In this document: positions 2 through 47,373 of the stretch, piece by piece
How the letters are laid out: every line of letters begins with the position of its first letter
Numbering within the stretch: position 1 is the first letter of the stretch
Assembly: GCA_963663035.1 (NCBI GenBank)
Contig: OY760074.1
Coordinates: 928,001 to 992,000, forward strand
Origin: Acidobacteriota bacterium
GTDB taxonomy: Bacteria > Acidobacteriota > UBA6911 > RPQK01 > JADFOI01
Direction of reading: 5' to 3'
DNA: 64,000 nt
The notes under the pieces: generated by a model
The model's input: only the letters and a program-made list of their open reading frames with translations
Told to the model about the DNA's origin: nothing
Databases searched by the model: none
Made by a program: the position numbers and the translations under genes

Positions 2-535
2 ATGGCTCTTTATGGGGTGGTCTTGGGTTTCATTTTTCTCTTCTACACGCTGGGGCTCTTCCTGGGAAGGGATCATTTCGTGGAAGCCAGGACGACTGAT
101 GGAGGATTCTCCCTTCCAGATATATCTGTCCAGGATCTCCAGCCAGACCTGGATTTCTACCAGGATTTGATGCTTCCAGCCCAGCCCGAGCAGGAGAGTA
201 CACCGTCAGCGGACGCCTCCTCGGTTGCAGCAGAGGTGTCCAGGGAGGACCCAGCAGAGCCGCCGGTAGACACCAGTCCAAGCTCTGCAGAGCCTTACAC
301 GGTGCAGGTGGGGGCTTTCACGGCTGAAGTGGATGCCAGGCAGATTCTGGTTCGCCTCGAGGCCAAGGGCTATTCGGGTGCACTGCGGCCTTCTTCCAGC
401 CAAGACCCGTACTACCGTGTCTGGGTGGGCGAGTTTAGAACTGTGGAAGAAGTCGGAGAGATGAACGAGTTGCTTCGACAGGATGGCTTTTTAACCTACA
501 TTAGAAAGGTCCCGGCTTCGAGTCCGACCTATTGA
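2..535 (+). CDS. SPOR-domain cell division/peptidoglycan-binding protein (may be 5'-truncated by the window edge)
   Basis: N-terminal TM helix, Pro/acidic linker, C-terminal SPOR motif YTVQVGAF...YYRVWVGEF. Confidence 0.85.
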   Translation: MALYGVVLGFIFLFYTLGLFLGRDHFVEARTTDGGFSLPDISVQDLQPDLDFYQDLMLPAQPEQESTPSADASSVAAEVSREDPAEPPVDTSPSSAEPYTVQVGAFTAEVDARQILVRLEAKGYSGALRPSSSQDPYYRVWVGEFRTVEEVGEMNELLRQDGFLTYIRKVPASSPTY

Positions 536-541
536 GTTTTA

Positions 542-798
542 ACCCGCACTCCCCACACCCGCTCTACTGCATCGGCGCAATGCTTCGACCTGACAGCGTT
601 GCACGACCCGCAAGCGGGTACCCCTCGCCTCCTCAACGTACTCAAGAGTACGTTTGCGGGGGCCGACCCGTGGCGGGTACCCCTCGCGCGCCAGTCGGAG
701 CCGCAGGCTTTAGCCTGCGGGCCCGTGGGCTAAAGCCCACGGCTCTGTTTTCCGGTCCTTTCGCCGCTTCGCTACGACCTGGTGTGAGAAATGCGGGT
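542..798. mobile_element. MITE family A, copy 1 (257 bp, TA duplication, nested REP pair)
   Basis: TIRs ACCCGCACTCCCCACACC / GGTGTGAGAAATGCGGGT; TA at 540-541 and 799-800; homologous to 31973-32178 in opposite orientation. Confidence 0.9.
696..747. repeat. Inverted pair of REP-A palindromes nested inside the MITE
   Basis: GAGCCGCAGGCTTTAGCCTGCGGGCC followed by its near reverse complement; absent from the 32 kb MITE copy; same unit at 39202, 40494, 40546, 40633. Confidence 0.85.
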
Positions 799-2320
799 TA
801 GTCTCTTCCATGGTGGGATGCTGTCCCTGGTCTCGGGGATTGCACTTTGGCTTTCCTTCCACCATTCCATCTTCTTTCCTCTGGCTTGGATTGCCCTCAT
901 TCCCTATCTCTCCTTTCTTTTGAAAAAGCCCTCCTGGAATTCAGTGCTCATAGGCAATGGGGTGATGGCGCTGGCTTATCTGGGAGGTGTCTTGTACTGG
1001 ATTCCCCGGGTTTTGGTGGTTTACGGAAACCTGAGCTGGACGCTGTCCCTGGTGGCTTTTCTGCTCATGCTGCTCCTCTTGAGTCTGTTTCTATTGCCTT
1101 TCTCCCTGTTGACCCGTTGGACGGCCGGGAAATCCGTCTCGGTGGCTCTCTTGTGCATCCCCGGGTACTGGCTTTTGACTGAACTGTGCCGAAACTATTT
1201 CCTCATCAATGGATTTCCCTGGGCCCTGCTCGGGTATTCCCAGTACCCCTATTCCTGGATTATCCAGGTGGCGGATCTGGCTGGAGTGTATCTGGTTTCC
1301 TTACTGGTGATGGCTGGCAACGCTGCCATATTAGGGACTTTCTGGTTGAAGTCCCTCCGGCCTCTGGTGATTTTCGCAGCCGTTTTTCTGGCTGCCAATC
1401 TTTACGGCGCATACCGCCTGCATTTTTGGCAGCCCGAGTCAGGACCTGCCCTCCAGGTAGCTTTGGTCCAGCCCAATATCGGGCTGACGGAAGAGATGGA
1501 ACATTACGCAGGAAAGTATTTCAACACCCTGGCAGAGTATTTCCAGCAGGCGGTGGATGGTGGTGCCCAGTGGGTGATTTTTCCAGAGGCTCCCAATCCC
1601 TATGTGTATGAGGAGGATTTTTATTTCACCACTTTCTGGCAGCGGCAGACCTCTACCCATGAGGCCTACCTGCTCTTTAACACGACACTGGTGGAGAGGA
1701 ACCCTGAATTTCAATACTTCAACAGCGCCGTGCTTCTCAGCCCGCAGGGCAAAGAGGCCTATCGCTACCACAAAACACATCTTGTTCCGTTTGGAGAATA
1801 TGTCCCATTTTCCAACTGGTTTGGAACGTTCTTTGAACCGCTCGTCCAGGAGGTGGGTGGGTTTTCGCCTGGCCAGGAGCTTTCAACCGGCAGCATCTCC
1901 GGCACTCAGTTCGCCACTCTGATTTGTTATGAGGCAATCTTTCCGGAGCTCAGCCGGCAGAGTGTCCGCCAAGGGGCGGAAGTTCTGGTGAATATCACAA
2001 ACGACTCCTGGTTTGGCCGCACTGCCGCTCCCAGCCAACATTTACACATGGCCGCTTTCCGTGCCATTGAGACCCGTAAGCCTCTTCTTCGCAGTGCCAA
2101 CAGCGGTTATTCGGTCGTCATCGATTACCTGGGTCGAGAAGGCCAGAAGATGGGGCTGTTCGAAGAAGGGATGTTTATCGCCGAAGTTGCCGGGAACAAC
2201 TACCGTTCTCTTTACTCTTATACAGGGGAATGGATTAATATATTCATTATAGGAGTTGCACTCCTGTTGCCTTTAGGGGCAGGCTTACAAGGATTTGCTC
2301 GTCAAAGATCGAAGAAGTGA
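791..2320 (+). CDS. lnt: Apolipoprotein N-acyltransferase
   Basis: Multi-TM N-terminus with GFPW and LGYSQ; nitrilase triad motifs FPE, KTHLVPFGEY, ICYEAIF; NDSWFG. Confidence 0.96.
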   Translation: MRVSLFHGGMLSLVSGIALWLSFHHSIFFPLAWIALIPYLSFLLKKPSWNSVLIGNGVMALAYLGGVLYWIPRVLVVYGNLSWTLSLVAFLLMLLLLSLFLLPFSLLTRWTAGKSVSVALLCIPGYWLLTELCRNYFLINGFPWALLGYSQYPYSWIIQVADLAGVYLVSLLVMAGNAAILGTFWLKSLRPLVIFAAVFLAANLYGAYRLHFWQPESGPALQVALVQPNIGLTEEMEHYAGKYFNTLAEYFQQAVDGGAQWVIFPEAPNPYVYEEDFYFTTFWQRQTSTHEAYLLFNTTLVERNPEFQYFNSAVLLSPQGKEAYRYHKTHLVPFGEYVPFSNWFGTFFEPLVQEVGGFSPGQELSTGSISGTQFATLICYEAIFPELSRQSVRQGAEVLVNITNDSWFGRTAAPSQHLHMAAFRAIETRKPLLRSANSGYSVVIDYLGREGQKMGLFEEGMFIAEVAGNNYRSLYSYTGEWINIFIIGVALLLPLGAGLQGFARQRSKK

Positions 2321-17573: not shown

Positions 17574-17847
17574 GTGCCTCGTTTCATAAATACGATGACG
17601 TTTGCTGATGGGTTTTGCGAGGCGAGGTCAAGGAGAGAGGAGGAGGCGATGTCAGGGACATCGGCGACGACGAGAGACACAGAGATCGCCCGCAACCCCC
17701 ATCAGCCCAAAGGGTGGCGGCGGGACGGCATCGATTTCTTTGTCGCTCCTCCTCCGCGATGCGCACAGACATCGTGTCGTCGTCGCTTCGCGAACTCGAC
17801 GCCGTCGCGCTCGCCACAAACGTCACCGTATTTATGAAGCGAGGCAC
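17574..17847. mobile_element. MITE family B (274 bp, about 31-bp TIRs, TAA duplication)
   Basis: GTGCCTCGTTTCATAAATACGATGACGTTTG vs reverse complement of right end GTGCCTCGCTTCATAAATACGGTGACGTTTG; TAA at 17571-17573 and 17848-17850. Confidence 0.88.
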
Positions 17848-24836: not shown

Positions 24837-24843
24837 GTCTGTG

Positions 24844-24866
24844 CGTGGGAGGCACCTCAGGTGCCG
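24844..24866 (+). repeat. REP-B palindrome
   Basis: CGTGGGAGGCACCTCAGGTGCCG; also at 39234, 39280 and inverted at 40459-40480. Confidence 0.8.
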
Positions 24867-24959
24867 CATTGTCCGATTTTCAACAGCACAGCTAAATCCA
24901 CGCCTGAACGAACAGTCCAGTTGCTCTTGAACTGGATTGCGCGATAAAATTATCGAGCC

Positions 24960-30255: not shown

Positions 30256-31091
30256 CTCCCATGGGTTCAGAACAAAGCCCGGAAATCCACAAAAGCGCTG
30301 ATGTTTCTTCACGTGCTGAACTCGCAGGCGGAGTCCGCATCGGACCCTATGCGGTCATTGGTGACGATGTCACCATCGGAGAGGGAACGGAAGTGGGTCC
30401 TCACACTGTGATCGAAGGTCCCACCATCATCGGTAAGGGAAACCGCATCATCGGTCAATCCGCCATAGGAACCATTCCTCAGGATCTCAAGTTTCAGGGT
30501 GAGAAGACTTCTCTGGCCATCGGGGATGACAATATCATCCGCGAGTTTGTCACCATTAATCGAGGGACTTCTGGTGGGGGTGGCAAGACGACCCTTGGGA
30601 GCGGGAATTTATTGATGACCGGCGTGCACATCGCCCACGACTGTCACGTGGGGCAGCGAGCCGTACTGGCCAACTCGGCTACCCTGGCTGGCCATGTCGA
30701 AGTGGCGGATGATTCGACGGTGGGTGCTTTCTCCGGTGTTCATCAGGACTGTCGGGTGGGGGTGCATGCCTTCATAGGAGGTTATTCGGTGGTCACCCGC
30801 GATGCCTTACCTTTCGTCAAAACCGTGGGCTACCGCAATCAAGCCAGGATTTACGGCATCAACAGCATCGGTCTGGAAAGGAAGAACTTTTCATCCCAAC
30901 GAATCGGAGTCCTGAAAAAGGCTTATCGGTTGCTCTTTCACAAGGGCTTGAAGCTCCGGCAGGCCATTGACCGGATTCGAGAGGAAGAACTGGAGAGCGA
31001 AGATCTGACCATCCTCATTGAGTTCATTGAAAGCTCGGGGAAGGGATTCGTGAGGAGTGTGAGCAGCAGCGGGAGCCCACGGGACTCGTGA
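30252..31091 (+). CDS. lpxA: UDP-GlcNAc acyltransferase
   Basis: [28 protein letters not shown]. Confidence 0.96.
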
Positions 31092-31945
31092 AGCTTGAAA
31101 AACTGGGACTCATAGCCGGAAATGGCCGATTCCCACTGCTGGTCCTGGAAGAAGCCCTCAAACGTGATATCAGTGTGGTGGTGGCAGCCATTCGGGAGGA
31201 AACCTCTCCCGAAATTGAAGACTTTGCTTCCCAGGATACGGTTTCCCTTCACTGGCTGGGCCTTGGTCAACTGGGGAAGTTGATCCGTCTCTTTAAGAAA
31301 GCGGGAGTCGAGAAGGTGATGATGGCCGGACAGGTCAAGCACGTTCAGATTTTTTCCCGCAAGGGGAGTGATTCTTCAAAACGCCGCGTCATCCTGCCCG
31401 ATTTGAAAATGACACGCCTGTTTATGTCTCTTCCTCAGAAGAACACCCAGGCACTGATAGGTGGAGTCATGGGAGCGCTGGAAAAGGAGGGCCTCCAGCT
31501 CATTGATTCGACCGTGCTCCTGCAGCCCCTGCTTGCCCAAGCCGGAGTCCTGACCCAGCGTGAGCCGGACAGCGAGGAGTCAAAGGATATGGAGTACGGC
31601 CGGTCTGTGGCGCGGGAGATTGCACGCCTCGATCTAGGTCAGACAGTCGTGGTAAAAGATCAGGCAGTGGTGGCCCTCGAGGCCATGGAAGGCACGGATG
31701 AAACAATTCGTCGTGCCTCTCGCCTGGTCGAAGGTGGACGCCTGACCGTGATCAAGCTCAGCCGACCGGATCAGGATATGAGATTCGATGTGCCCGTGGT
31801 CGGTCTGGATACACTTCAGGTCCTGCAGGAATGCAGGGTCTCAGCGCTTTCAATCGACGCGGGTAAGACGTTGATATTGGATCGTGAGAGCTTTATCCAG
31901 GAGGCTGATCGTCACAGCATGACGGTGGTAGCCGAGGCGGTCTAG
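31088..31945 (+). CDS. lpxI: UDP-2,3-diacylglucosamine pyrophosphatase
   Basis: GLIAGNGRFP, DLGQTVVV, EAMEGTD, QDMRFDVPVVG. Confidence 0.93.
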   Translation: MKLEKLGLIAGNGRFPLLVLEEALKRDISVVVAAIREETSPEIEDFASQDTVSLHWLGLGQLGKLIRLFKKAGVEKVMMAGQVKHVQIFSRKGSDSSKRRVILPDLKMTRLFMSLPQKNTQALIGGVMGALEKEGLQLIDSTVLLQPLLAQAGVLTQREPDSEESKDMEYGRSVAREIARLDLGQTVVVKDQAVVALEAMEGTDETIRRASRLVEGGRLTVIKLSRPDQDMRFDVPVVGLDTLQVLQECRVSALSIDAGKTLILDRESFIQEADRHSMTVVAEAV

Positions 31946-31972
31946 CCACCGTATTGATGAAACGAAGCGTTA

Positions 31973-32178
31973 ACCCGCAGTGCTCACACCAGGTCGTCAC
32001 GAAGTGGCGGAAGGGCCGGCCTGACAAGGCGCGTGAGGGGTACCCGCCACGGGTCGGCGCCCGCAAACGTACTCTTGAGTACGTTGAGGAGCCGTGGGGT
32101 ACCCGCTTGCGGGTCGTGCAACACAGTCAGGACGGATCATTGCGCCAATGCAGTAGATCGGGTGTGAGAAGTGCGGGT
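31973..32178. mobile_element. MITE family A, copy 2 (206 bp, TA duplication)
   Basis: TIRs ACCCGCAGTGCTCACACC / GGTGTGAGAAGTGCGGGT; TA at 31971-31972 and 32179-32180. Confidence 0.9.
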
Positions 32179-33121
32179 TAGGGTTGCTGTGGTGGGCGTG
32201 GGGGCTCTCGGGGAGCAGCATGCCCGAATCTACTCCGAACTTCCGGAAGCCGAGCTGGTGGCTGTGGTGGATATCGAGGAAGAGAAGGGCCGACAAGTCG
32301 CCTCCCGCTGCAACTGTCGATCCTATCAACGATATGAGGATGTCCTCGACTCAGTAGAGGCGGTCAGTCTGGCTGTCCCAACCTCGGAGCACGCTCGAAT
32401 TGGTGTGGAGTTTCTGAAACGAGATGTGCATGTTCTGGCCGAAAAGCCCATTGCTGAGGATCTGGAAGAGGCTGAGCTGCTCATCCAGGCGCAAAAAGAA
32501 AGTGGCGCCTTGCTGCAGGTGGGTCACTCGGAACGATTCAACCCAGCCCTGAAGGCCGTGAAACCTTTCATTACCCAGCCCAAATTTTTTGAAGCCCACA
32601 GGCTGGCTGTTTTTGTTCCTCGAAGCCTGGATGTGGATGTCATTCTGGATCTGATGATCCATGACCTGGATTTGATTCTCCATCTGGTGGACAGCCCGGT
32701 CCGGGAAGTCAGGGCCGTGGGAATACCCGTCTTGACCCCTCGCATCGATATTGCCAATGCGCGCCTGGAGTTTGAAAATGGCTGTGTGGCCAACGTGACC
32801 GCCAGTCGGGTATCCAGAGAGAGGATTCGGAAGCTCCGCTTTTTTCAGCCCTTCGAGTACGTGTCCATCGACTTTCTCAAGCTGGAAGTGGAGATGGTCA
32901 GTCTTCTCGATGAAGCCCCGGGAAAGCAGATTGCCCAGAGGAATTTCGAGATTGATCCAGATGAGCCGCTCAAGCTGGAGCTGCAGGCATTCCTGGGTGC
33001 CATTCAGGGTCAGAAGCCCGTTGACGGAGAACCCGTCGCCTGCTCCGGGGAAGAGGGCATGCGTGCCCTGGCGCTGGCGCTGGAAGTGAAGAGCCGCGCG
33101 CAGAGCGCGCTGGTGGCGTAG
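32171..33121 (+). CDS. Gfo/Idh/MocA family oxidoreductase
   Basis: VAVVGVGALG, HVLAEKP, GHSERFNP, DLMIHDLD; typical neighbour of lpxA/lpxI. Confidence 0.92.
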   Translation: MRVRVAVVGVGALGEQHARIYSELPEAELVAVVDIEEEKGRQVASRCNCRSYQRYEDVLDSVEAVSLAVPTSEHARIGVEFLKRDVHVLAEKPIAEDLEEAELLIQAQKESGALLQVGHSERFNPALKAVKPFITQPKFFEAHRLAVFVPRSLDVDVILDLMIHDLDLILHLVDSPVREVRAVGIPVLTPRIDIANARLEFENGCVANVTASRVSRERIRKLRFFQPFEYVSIDFLKLEVEMVSLLDEAPGKQIAQRNFEIDPDEPLKLELQAFLGAIQGQKPVDGEPVACSGEEGMRALALALEVKSRAQSALVA

Positions 33122-39186: not shown

Positions 39187-39201
39187 GTGTGAATTTCCGA
39201 T

Positions 39202-39306
39202 CAGAGCCGTGGGCTTTAGCCCACGGGCCAGAACGTGGGAGGCACCTCAGGTGCCGAATCCAGAAATGTGTGGATTGAACGTGGGAGGCACCTCAGGTGC
39301 CGAATC
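39202..39306. repeat. REP cluster (REP-A + two REP-B)
   Basis: CAGAGCCGTGGGCTTTAGCCCACGGGCC then two GAACGTGGGAGGCACCTCAGGTGCCGAATC. Confidence 0.88.
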
Positions 39307-39334
39307 TTTTAGTTCCCAGCTGTTTCCCGAATCC

Positions 39335-40288
39335 TCATTTCACGTGCAGCCTGGTAACGGTGATGCTGTCCATATTGCCCACCCAGATGTTGGAGCCATC
39401 GAAGGCTAGAGCCCGTGGTTCTGCTCCTACGGCGAATGTCCTCACATGTGCTCCATCACTGGCTCGAAGCTGGGTCACTGTATTCTCAGCGGAATTGGGA
39501 ATCCAGATGTGGCTCCCGTCAAAGACAACCTGGGATCGAGGCCTTTCTCCCACGGCAAACTTGCCCAGGGTTACTCCATCACTGACCCGTATCTTGACCA
39601 CGGCATTGCTGCGAAAGGTCCCCACCCAGATATGTTCTCCATCGAATATCAGCCCAACTGGGGTTTGTCCCACCGCAAAGGTTTCCAGGGTAGTCCCGTC
39701 ACTGGCCAGCTTTGTGACCGTATCGCTGTCTCGATTGGACACCCAGATATCTGTTCCATCAAAGGCCACTCCAACCGGTGCCTTTCCAACGCTAAATTTT
39801 CCCAGGGTTGCGCCATCACTGGCCCGCAGTTTGGTGACGGTGTTGCCAGCCCTTTGCGTCACCCAAATATTGGTCCCGTCGGAAAGGATGCCGAAGGGCT
39901 CGCTGTCAACCGTGAATGTGCCAAGGTTCGTCCCATCACGGGCGCGCAGCTTGGTTACCGTGCCGCCGTCTCGGCTTGCCACCCAGATGTTCTCTCCATC
40001 GAAGGCCAGCCCAATCGGTGCCTCGCCCACAGGAAATTCACCCACTACAGCCCCGTCGCTGGTGCGGATTTTCGATACCTTGTGAATTGCCGAATTGCTC
40101 ACCCAAATATAGGTCCCATCGAAAGTCATCCTGGCCGGCCGGGTTCCCACGGTGAAGTCTGTGCGTGCGTCCTGCTGTTGGGCGTGCAGGTAAGATCCAG
40201 AGAAGAGCCCTAGCACAATGAGAAAAAACGTGGGAATAGAATTAGTTACAGGAAATAATATAATGTAATACTTGAAGATATACCACAC
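39335..40288 (-). CDS. Secreted YncE/YVTN-like seven-bladed beta-propeller protein (start uncertain)
   Basis: Seven ~41-aa repeats FDGxxIWV...VTKLRASDG...FxVGxxP; signal-peptide-like FFLIVLGLFSGSYLHA. Confidence 0.82.
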   Translation of the reverse strand: MWYIFKYYIILFPVTNSIPTFFLIVLGLFSGSYLHAQQQDARTDFTVGTRPARMTFDGTYIWVSNSAIHKVSKIRTSDGAVVGEFPVGEAPIGLAFDGENIWVASRDGGTVTKLRARDGTNLGTFTVDSEPFGILSDGTNIWVTQRAGNTVTKLRASDGATLGKFSVGKAPVGVAFDGTDIWVSNRDSDTVTKLASDGTTLETFAVGQTPVGLIFDGEHIWVGTFRSNAVVKIRVSDGVTLGKFAVGERPRSQVVFDGSHIWIPNSAENTVTQLRASDGAHVRTFAVGAEPRALAFDGSNIWVGNMDSITVTRLHVK

Positions 40289-40393: not shown

Positions 40394-40440
40394 ACTAAAA
40401 GCTGAGTCTACAACAACCATGCCAGAAATGTGAAGCGTCC

Positions 40441-40661
40441 CCTGACAGCTGACAGATTCGGCACCTGAGGTGCCTCCCACATTCTGGCCTGTTGGCCCGT
40501 GGGCTAAAGCCCACGGCTCTGTTAGGAAGTGGCGACGAATATTCAGGCCCGTAGGCTAAAGCCCACGGCTCTGTCTGATCCTCGTCAGCTCCGACAGAGT
40601 ATTGTAGCGGCCGCTCTATGAGCGGCCTCCGTCAGAGCCGCAGGCTTTAGCCTGCGGGCCC
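40441..40661. repeat. REP cluster (REP-B, three REP-A, one GTAG-type palindrome)
   Basis: Inverted REP-B 40455-40484; REP-A 40494-40521, 40546-40573, 40633-40660; GTAGCGGCCGCTCTATGAGCGGCC 40604-40627. Confidence 0.88.
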
Positions 40662-47197: not shown

Positions 47198-47373
47198 GCC
47201 CGGATTATGCATAGGTTCTTGTCACGAAGCGACGAAAGCGCCGGCCTGACAAGGCGCGCGACGGAGGCCCCCGCAAACGTACTCTTGAGTACGTCGAGGA
47301 GGCTGACCGAGCGCAACGCTGGCAGGGCGGATGATCTCGTAGCTGCAGTAGAGAATTTATGCATAATACGGGC
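47198..47373. mobile_element. MITE related to family A (176 bp, TA duplication)
   Basis: TIRs GCCCGGATTATGCATA / TATGCATAATACGGGC; TA 47196-47197 and 47374-47375; shares CCGGCCTGACAAGGCGCG and CCCGCAAACGTACTCTTGAGTACGT with 31973-32178. Confidence 0.87.

Follow-up and report, generated by a model that had tools for sequence, protein, structure and literature searches.

Apparent capture of gene starts by an IS1380-type MITE in operons of an Acidobacteriota lineage

Mycobacterial interspersed repetitive units (MIRUs; Supply et al. 1997) are described, in the available parts of two accounts (PMC12548453, PMC3184786), as repeats that insert at start codons and carry a coupled internal open reading frame (ORF). 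The element analysed here, designated A1, is like MIRUs in these excerpts a short, apparently mobile repeat in operons, with a putative 4-nt duplication, an internal ORF apparently coupled to the downstream gene and presumed survival of that gene's expression. According to the same excerpts, MIRUs measure about 40-100 bp, whereas the A1 element measures 87-470 bp and has IS1380-type ends. MIRUs are said to insert at start codons, whereas gene starts hold 5 of the 54 A1 copies and stop codons hold 23, and the MIRU spacing to the native start is -4, whereas the putative A1 relay has a spacing of -11 or +3 (PMC12548453, PMC3184786). Unlike MIRUs as excerpted, the A1 captures sit a few codons inside the gene and replace its N-terminal residues with their own start. 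Set apart by these published descriptions of ends, size, target and spacing, the element works like MIRUs but is not one.

The Neisseria REP2 repeat and the ERIC, BOX, BRE and RPE repeats provide an initiation codon to, or fuse with, host ORFs, as described in the available parts of three papers (PMC3184786, PMC2229807, PMC3049150). In these sources REP2 is without terminal repeats and brings a promoter and a ribosome-binding site, unlike the A1 element, and RPE and ERIC fusions are read in frame as part of the protein, whereas the gene frame through A1 is closed by a TGA. No description of the A1 MITE family, or of start-codon donation by IS1380 ends, was found in the literature searched, outside which much subscription literature lies. 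Mobile DNA that seizes and repeatedly rewrites the start codons of housekeeping genes was found in print, within the same literature, only for MIRUs.

The window, a 64,000-nt stretch of the genome designated G000, contains an operon in which a copy of the A1 element lies between an LpxI-like gene and a gene encoding a Gfo/Idh/MocA oxidoreductase (Table 1). The ORFs upstream of the LpxI-like gene are presumably lpxD-fabZ-lpxA, judged from their translations, and the oxidoreductase is taken to be GnnA in both name and pathway role. The LpxI-like gene matches the model NF047836 below the cut-off of that model, and the best NCBIfam match of the oxidoreductase, UDP-GlcNAc 3-dehydrogenase, is also below cut-off. 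As the first-pass annotation of this DNA had proposed, the terminal repeat provides the start of the oxidoreductase, the GTG at 32171-32173 being in frame with the 316-aa ORF; the Pfam model begins at residue 3. That no start further down could substitute holds at this gene, where the alternatives are an in-frame GTG at codon 7 (inside the first strand) and an ATG at codon 162, but not at lnt, where a native ATG at codon 10 could serve in G000. Gene starts in these genomes are prone to misannotation, and the gene caller used in this analysis itself placed the oxidoreductase start at codon 7. Decay of the gene, a possibility raised at first pass, was checked: the gene is intact and shows 50 synonymous and 22 non-synonymous codon differences from its G002 orthologue over 310 codons; it is under purifying selection and is not decaying.

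Excision of 31973-32180 rejoins ATG AAA CGA AGC GTT AGG GTT GCT, exactly as first described. The old start is also open through the element to the TAG at 32179-32181, which overlaps the new GTG at 32171 by 11 nt, as at lnt; a stop thus lies beside a start, as in coupled upstream ORFs. A Pfam search with this relay ORF gave no match. Each of the two copies is closed in the direction used by the other, the reverse frame of the gnnA copy being shut at 31997-31999 and the forward frame of the lnt copy being shut as well. The insertion phase NNT/AG, which had been remarked as common to both sites, is indeed present at both, but it is forced by the repeat, since any copy with an in-frame start must have it.

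Table 1. Features of the gnnA-like and lnt gene starts, in window coordinates
Feature	Position	Strand	Remarks
LpxI-like upstream gene	31088..31945	+	Stop TAG 31943-31945, 11 nt before relay ATG
Solitary terminal-repeat remnant, MITE family B	31947..31972	+	Carries the 'old' ATG 31957
Relay ORF, 74 codons	31957..32181	+	ATG 31957 (TTG 31954 in frame) to TAG 32179-32181
Left target-site flank TTAA	31970..31973		Sequence reading
MITE family A1, 204 bp	31974..32177	+	One long RNA stem-loop (predicted)
Left terminal inverted repeat	31974..31989	+	Pairs with new start region in predicted RNA fold
TGA shutting reverse-orientation relay frame, gnnA-site copy	31997..31999	-	Frame reading
Right terminal inverted repeat	32162..32177	+	In-frame TGA 32165-32167, then new start GTG 32171-32173
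Right target-site flank TTAG	32178..32181		Contains relay stop and codons 3-4 of oxidoreductase gene
Intact Gfo/Idh/MocA oxidoreductase, GnnA-like	32171..33121	+	316 aa; starts at the repeat's GTG
lnt relay ORF	532..801	+	Opens at TTG 532, which overlaps the upstream stop; ends at TAG 799-801
Sister MITE copy, 255 bp, reverse orientation	543..797	-	Supplies ATG 791 of lnt

The sister copy at lnt (543-797) contains a 51-bp REP-like insert at about 704-754. Of 13 genomes compared, five (G000, G001, G002, G005 and G006) have an element-derived lnt start and the remaining 8 do not, and the MITE in G000 is reversed relative to the copies in G002, G005 and G006. Reverse orientation is uncommon among the in-phase copies of the census described below (21 forward, 3 reverse, 7 undetermined), so the lnt copy is of the rarer kind. 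In the gene that follows lnt, a short first ORF leads into CTT TGA C (2390-2400), which we take to be the signature of the prfB +1 frameshift.

A blastn census located the shared core of the element at 199 loci in G000. When paired copies were sorted by their ends, 54 were of type A1, 102 of a sister type (A2), and 7 and 8 of two other types. In other genomes, among the matches listed, the A1 terminal repeat is also found at both ends of IS1380-family insertion sequences of 1.6-1.7 kb with a PF13701-type transposase. A scan of public genomes for A1 ends gave at least 120 loci; among the matches listed, at least 8 have an IS1380-type transposase and at least 4 have both ends 1605-1694 bp apart. 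One transposase from these loci was checked by Pfam and belongs to PF13701 (DDE_Tnp_1_4). Because its end flanks IS1380-type elements in public genomes, the A1 element, which is short, multicopy and non-coding and has terminal inverted repeats, is classed as an IS1380-type MITE. The start codon is a property of a transposon end spread over many phyla, and not an invention of the gnnA locus.

Unlike IS1380-family insertion sequences, the A1 element is non-coding, and the resident insertion sequence of G000, with its CTAG duplication, has ends that are related but not identical to those of A1. This insertion sequence is 1.64 kb long, is present in 27 copies and encodes PF13701. Exact 4-bp flank repeats surround 25 of its 27 copies (24 of them CTAG) and 5 of the 54 A1 copies; the gnnA-site copy has TTAA and TTAG. 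The bounds of this copy were set at 31974-32177, between 4-nt flanks, because a 4-bp duplication is the rule among the autonomous IS1380 copies. The gnnA site, taken alone, would fit a 2-bp TA duplication of the IS630 type equally well, a reading dropped since the cognate insertion sequence duplicates 4 bp. The commonest single length in G000 is the 196-bp class, which is frame-closed and shows no clear start capture. An Rfam scan returned no significant family and a single chance-level match.

In the flanks of the MITE copies of G000, the two inner bases stay complementary (AG..CT or AA..TT) and the outer two drift. A 4-bp duplication kept faithfully would not look so; the cause may be correction driven by the hairpin, or selection acting on the RNA stem. 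REP-like palindromes of two families, both free and nested in MITEs, occur in the window at 704-754, 39200-39320, 40440-40660 and 24841-24875, and the nested unit of 51 bp is a multiple of three in length. An A2 MITE with the same core lies between divergent genes (47199-47372), and three 88-nt in-frame repeats lie inside a minus-strand gene (39623-40067). About 107 intervals of 1-3 kb, derived from at least four multi-copy IS families (1.27, 1.30, 1.38 and 1.65 kb), were recorded in G000:C1 and mark a large recent IS expansion.

The old ATG had been read at first pass as the remains of an ancestral MKRSVRV N-terminus. This reading is not supported: element-free relatives read M-A-x-T-K/R-VAVVG or M-I/T-K/R-LAVVG. 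The MKRSV start was rejected as ancestral, and 31947-31972 is the terminal repeat of a second MITE family (family B), identical to the family-B end consensus at 21 of 26 positions. Its score in a family-B matrix, which was trained on ends with internal element context, is reached 97 times in the genome and 0 times in two control sequences, reversed or complemented. The gnnA orthologue of G005 takes its start from a complete family-B copy; the relay there begins at an ATG that overlaps the lpxI stop and ends at a TGA that overlaps the new ATG, the sole case of -4 spacing seen.

Among the 12 family genomes with the locus, the gnnA start is element-derived in G000, G002, G005 and G009. The element in G002 is reduced to a right-end remnant, and there the stop codon of lpxI comes 3 nt ahead of the GTG. 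The insertion in G009, a member of another genus, is read as an independent event because the two other sampled members of that genus are element-free at gnnA. The gnnA start has been taken at least three times: by family B, by family A in G000/G002 and by family A in G009. Since every insertion leaves an in-phase YTAR target at the element end, we infer serial replacement of elements at this site. Filled and element-free orthologous sites both exist, and some element-free junctions look remodelled. At the lpxI–oxidoreductase junction of L003, L005 and L006 (G003, G004 and G001, respectively), extended and mutually different lpxI tails overlap the next start, which suggests that these 'empty' sites were remodelled, perhaps after element loss.

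Further family-B sequences were observed. A full 272-bp family-B MITE lies at 17575-17846 of the window; its left flank is the stop codon of a gene that we assume to be crotonase-like, and 6 nt beyond the MITE begins a gene assumed to be ribH-like. Isolated remnants of the family-B repeat, some of them with a TGATG variant, occur at G000:C1 3271490-3271520, 2568810, 283777 and 1326073. The remnant at 3271490-3271520 supplies the start of a HAD/riboflavin-kinase fusion gene, at whose site G003 and G004 carry different family-B remnants. No autonomous partner of the family-B MITE was identified.

The phase of insertion was tabulated over 324 A1 ends from seven genomes, comprising all 118 ends that passed the filters in G000 and the ends in pattern-search loci of six others (30 of 42 loci in G001, 30 of 109 in G009, 30 of 45 in G006, 28 of 28 in G003, 20 of 20 in G013 and 14 of 14 in G005). 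Ends with less than 200 nt downstream were left out, as were unpaired ends carrying two or more mismatches. Coding frames were required to have at least 80 codons and a positive score in our own hexamer model and to be open to the element junction. In this census, in which the genomes are related, the gene calls come from a simple model of our own and the pattern search favours intact ends, 49 coding frames abut A1 ends; 39 are in the phase of the repeat's start codon, and 5 and 5 are in the other two. The target-site stop usually shuts one of the two remaining phases, so the appropriate comparison is 39 versus 5 (p = 7e-8, a value overstated because related genomes are not independent). The bias exceeds chance in the seven genomes; copies out of frame at the chance rate were the outcome that the first-pass annotation had named as refuting.

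By Pfam, the in-phase genes include members of the gpmI, sirtuin, ThiD, PrmC, LipA, NuoG, HAD, SDR and M16 families. In 11 in-phase cases, by our own count, the Pfam domain begins before any other in-frame start codon, and some of the 39, with native starts further down, are probably not captures. The gene frame through the element is always shut by a TGA in the repeat (0 of 276 ends open), and the repeat therefore contributes only about three residues. In-frame fusion of the element to the protein is impossible with the gene frame closed at 276 of 276 ends. Little bias was seen for family B (109 ends; phases 12, 8 and 6). No bias was seen for distant taxa among the public-genome matches listed (130 ends; phases 8, 13 and 1), a count made on ORF length only, with no coding model.

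Both element ends are in view in 31 of the 39 in-phase cases. A relay was scored when a start codon lay no more than 45 nt upstream and its frame first met a stop at -15/+12 nt or closer to the new start. Relays are present in 22 of 31 in-phase copies versus 39 of 245 other ends (p = 6e-10, overstated for the same reason), and at 19 of 27 distinct sites after repeated sites were collapsed by hand. All 22 end at +11 or -3 of the new start. In 23 of 31 in-phase copies versus 61 of 245 other ends, the exit frame leading to the target stop passes through the entire element without interruption. An uninterrupted exit frame is commoner in the in-phase copies in each of the seven genomes (CMH p = 5e-8), and among lengths divisible by 3 it is present in 20 of 22 versus 39 of 86 (p = 7e-5). 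Of 21 full relays, 4 have an open frame on the opposite strand, which is about background.

In the off-length copies of 151 and 175 bp, the ATG sits in the shifted frame that reaches the stop, and in the 197-bp copy at nuoG the relay ends on the repeat's TGA, 3 nt before the start. In G002 the frame survived later deletions, one at lnt and one at gpmI, and at lnt it also survived a nested insertion of 291 nt (G006 versus G005). For the sirtuin gene (cobB) the empty site has lost the native ATG, and comparison with G002 suggests that it was lost by a 4-nt deletion after insertion. No relay is present in 9 of the 31 in-phase copies, and 5 of these have a plausible native start downstream. The relay is broken or start-less at prmC (L132), an SDR gene (L220) and LUD-domain genes (L244, L253), which look like real captures. 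For family B the relay is present in 1 of 7 in-phase ends versus 1 of 65 others, and the rule is not supported; single clear captures by this family are gnnA in G005 and the HAD/riboflavin-kinase gene. For A1, selection for the start and relay geometry is well supported by these counts.

Start capture by a MITE without special aim, combined with a ribosome relay and reinitiation, is probably the best explanation. The MITE would insert at YTAR/CTAG sites without aim, mostly at stop codons and between genes, and its terminal repeat, read outward, by chance gives RTG-CGG-G. Landing at NNT/AR in the first codons of a needed gene, it would provide an in-frame start and an N-terminus M-R-A/V-. The new start is predicted to be buried in the element's own RNA stem, and a coupling relay therefore appears to be the likeliest mechanism. 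The element RNA is predicted to fold into one long stem-loop (z = -5.5) with the GTG in the closing stem, and the predicted unpaired probability around the GTG is 0.18 in the whole element and 0.59 without the left arm.

The stranded upstream start would be coupled to the preceding gene, lying 11 nt after the lpxI stop at gnnA and at an overlapping stop at lnt. Ribosomes from this start would translate the element and melt the stem. They would then terminate either at the target-site TAG/TAA, 11 nt inside the new gene, or at the TGA of the repeat, 3 nt ahead of that gene, and initiate again. Insertions that are out of phase or closed in frame would be purged, and captured ends would outlast others. 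Each insertion would re-create an in-phase target at its end, so that later elements could replace earlier ones at the same site. Coupling by structure melting and by termination-reinitiation are both described in the available part of one source (PMC6728339); in that of another, coupling favours -4/-1 and is lost at a distance of about 20 nt (PMC10666635). Overlapping pairs in our own gene calls number 206 at -4, 47 at -1 and 14 at -11; the dominance of the coupling-type -4 overlaps favours the relay, and the rarity of -11 speaks against it. Also against it stand the nine in-phase copies that have no relay, the weak result for family B and the lack of bias in distant taxa among the matches listed. 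No promoter or terminator was found in the element, and no promoter-like site in 31900-32250. Two RNA-library contigs from one study (31820-32052 and 31814-32122; depth about 3, DNA carry-over possible) cross the left junction unexcised. No element-skipping RNA joint was listed among these low-depth contigs, which give no coverage of the right junction or mid-gene.

The first-pass annotation had ascribed the geometry to selection or targeting. Selection is favoured by the phase counts (39 versus 5 versus 5) and the relay counts (22/31 versus 39/245). In G000 a called stop codon forms the flank of 23 of the 54 A1 copies, 5 are start captures with a relay (in one of these, an AddB-like gene, codon 19 is a native ATG as well), and 1 is flagged mid-gene versus 4 of 27 recent IS copies. 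Of the tolerated YTAR sites, 5.0% are in-phase targets in codons 2-11, a share that the 5 of 54 fits (p = 0.13); of CTAG sites the share is 2.1% (p = 0.005). Because 5 of 54 fits the YTAR expectation and 23 of 54 copies lie at stop codons, survival filtering suffices for the geometry and targeting is not needed, though modest targeting is possible. That captures make up a larger share in relatives may be due to the loss by decay of ends that captured nothing, given the intact-end search. That the element is actively targeted to gene starts and built as a coupling cassette is quite improbable. Recurrent hits (gnnA at least three times, lnt in both orientations, an LUD-domain gene in two genera) and the excess over the strict-CTAG expectation speak for it. 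The copies at stop codons and the fit to a YTAR target speak against it, as does the presence of the same start-bearing repeat around full IS1380 elements in other phyla without phase bias, among the matches listed; the frame-closed 196-bp class, the commonest in G000, argues against a cassette.

Instead, the repeat may give the start while the open frame is kept because translation through the element protects the mRNA from Rho-dependent polarity or RNase attack on the hairpin, with fresh initiation at the new start. This is unlikely, although it predicts an identical open-frame enrichment, and the available part of PMC2229807 reports ribosome-dependent effects of ERIC hairpins on mRNA stability. 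All 22 relays end at +11 or -3, which protection alone does not require; this is a weak objection, as both stops are built into the repeat or target. Removal of the element from the RNA, or its bypass by a +1 frameshift at the final GGT-TAG, would let the protein start at the old ATG; it would account for retention of the old start in nearly all cases and would restore the frame. It has very little probability, since the two low-depth RNA contigs keep the left junction and no skipping joint was listed, open frames and lengths divisible by 3 would not be needed, one-ended remnants still serve (G002) and the cobB empty site is without a native ATG. The least credible account is chance combined with subfamily history, in which a 174/204-bp class, open by descent, was active when the sites were hit and the relay is functionless. 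Non-captured 204-210-bp copies are often open in both directions and 39 of 86 non-captured copies with lengths divisible by 3 are open, as it predicts, but the enrichment holds when lengths divisible by 3, or single genomes, are taken by themselves, the frame was preserved in each of three later rearrangements, and the 151-, 175- and 197-bp copies have an upstream start in exactly the stop-reaching frame.

Numerous housekeeping genes of this bacterial family have taken up a MITE in their first codons, and they appear to survive by using the repeat's start while the old start is read through the element, which probably brings ribosomes to the new one. Dozens of genes thereby form a natural experiment on what a structured insertion needs in order to avoid silencing the next gene of an operon. 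The statistics point to a strict need for ribosome delivery, with the unusual -11 spacing and no promoter-like site found in the element. The element is a compact and testable putative coupling module. More speculatively, and less likely than not, the MITE lineage may be a standing relay cassette, in which a 174/204-bp form kept open, with a repeat that carries both a stop and a start, colonises the 5' ends of essential genes. The host genes would then depend on ribosomes unwinding the element, and successive elements would replace one another at the same start over genus-scale time. If so, lipid A, lipoprotein and respiratory genes would be among those dependent on unwinding of the element, their N-termini would have been rewritten, and the genes would possibly be tied to a shared control by RNA structure.
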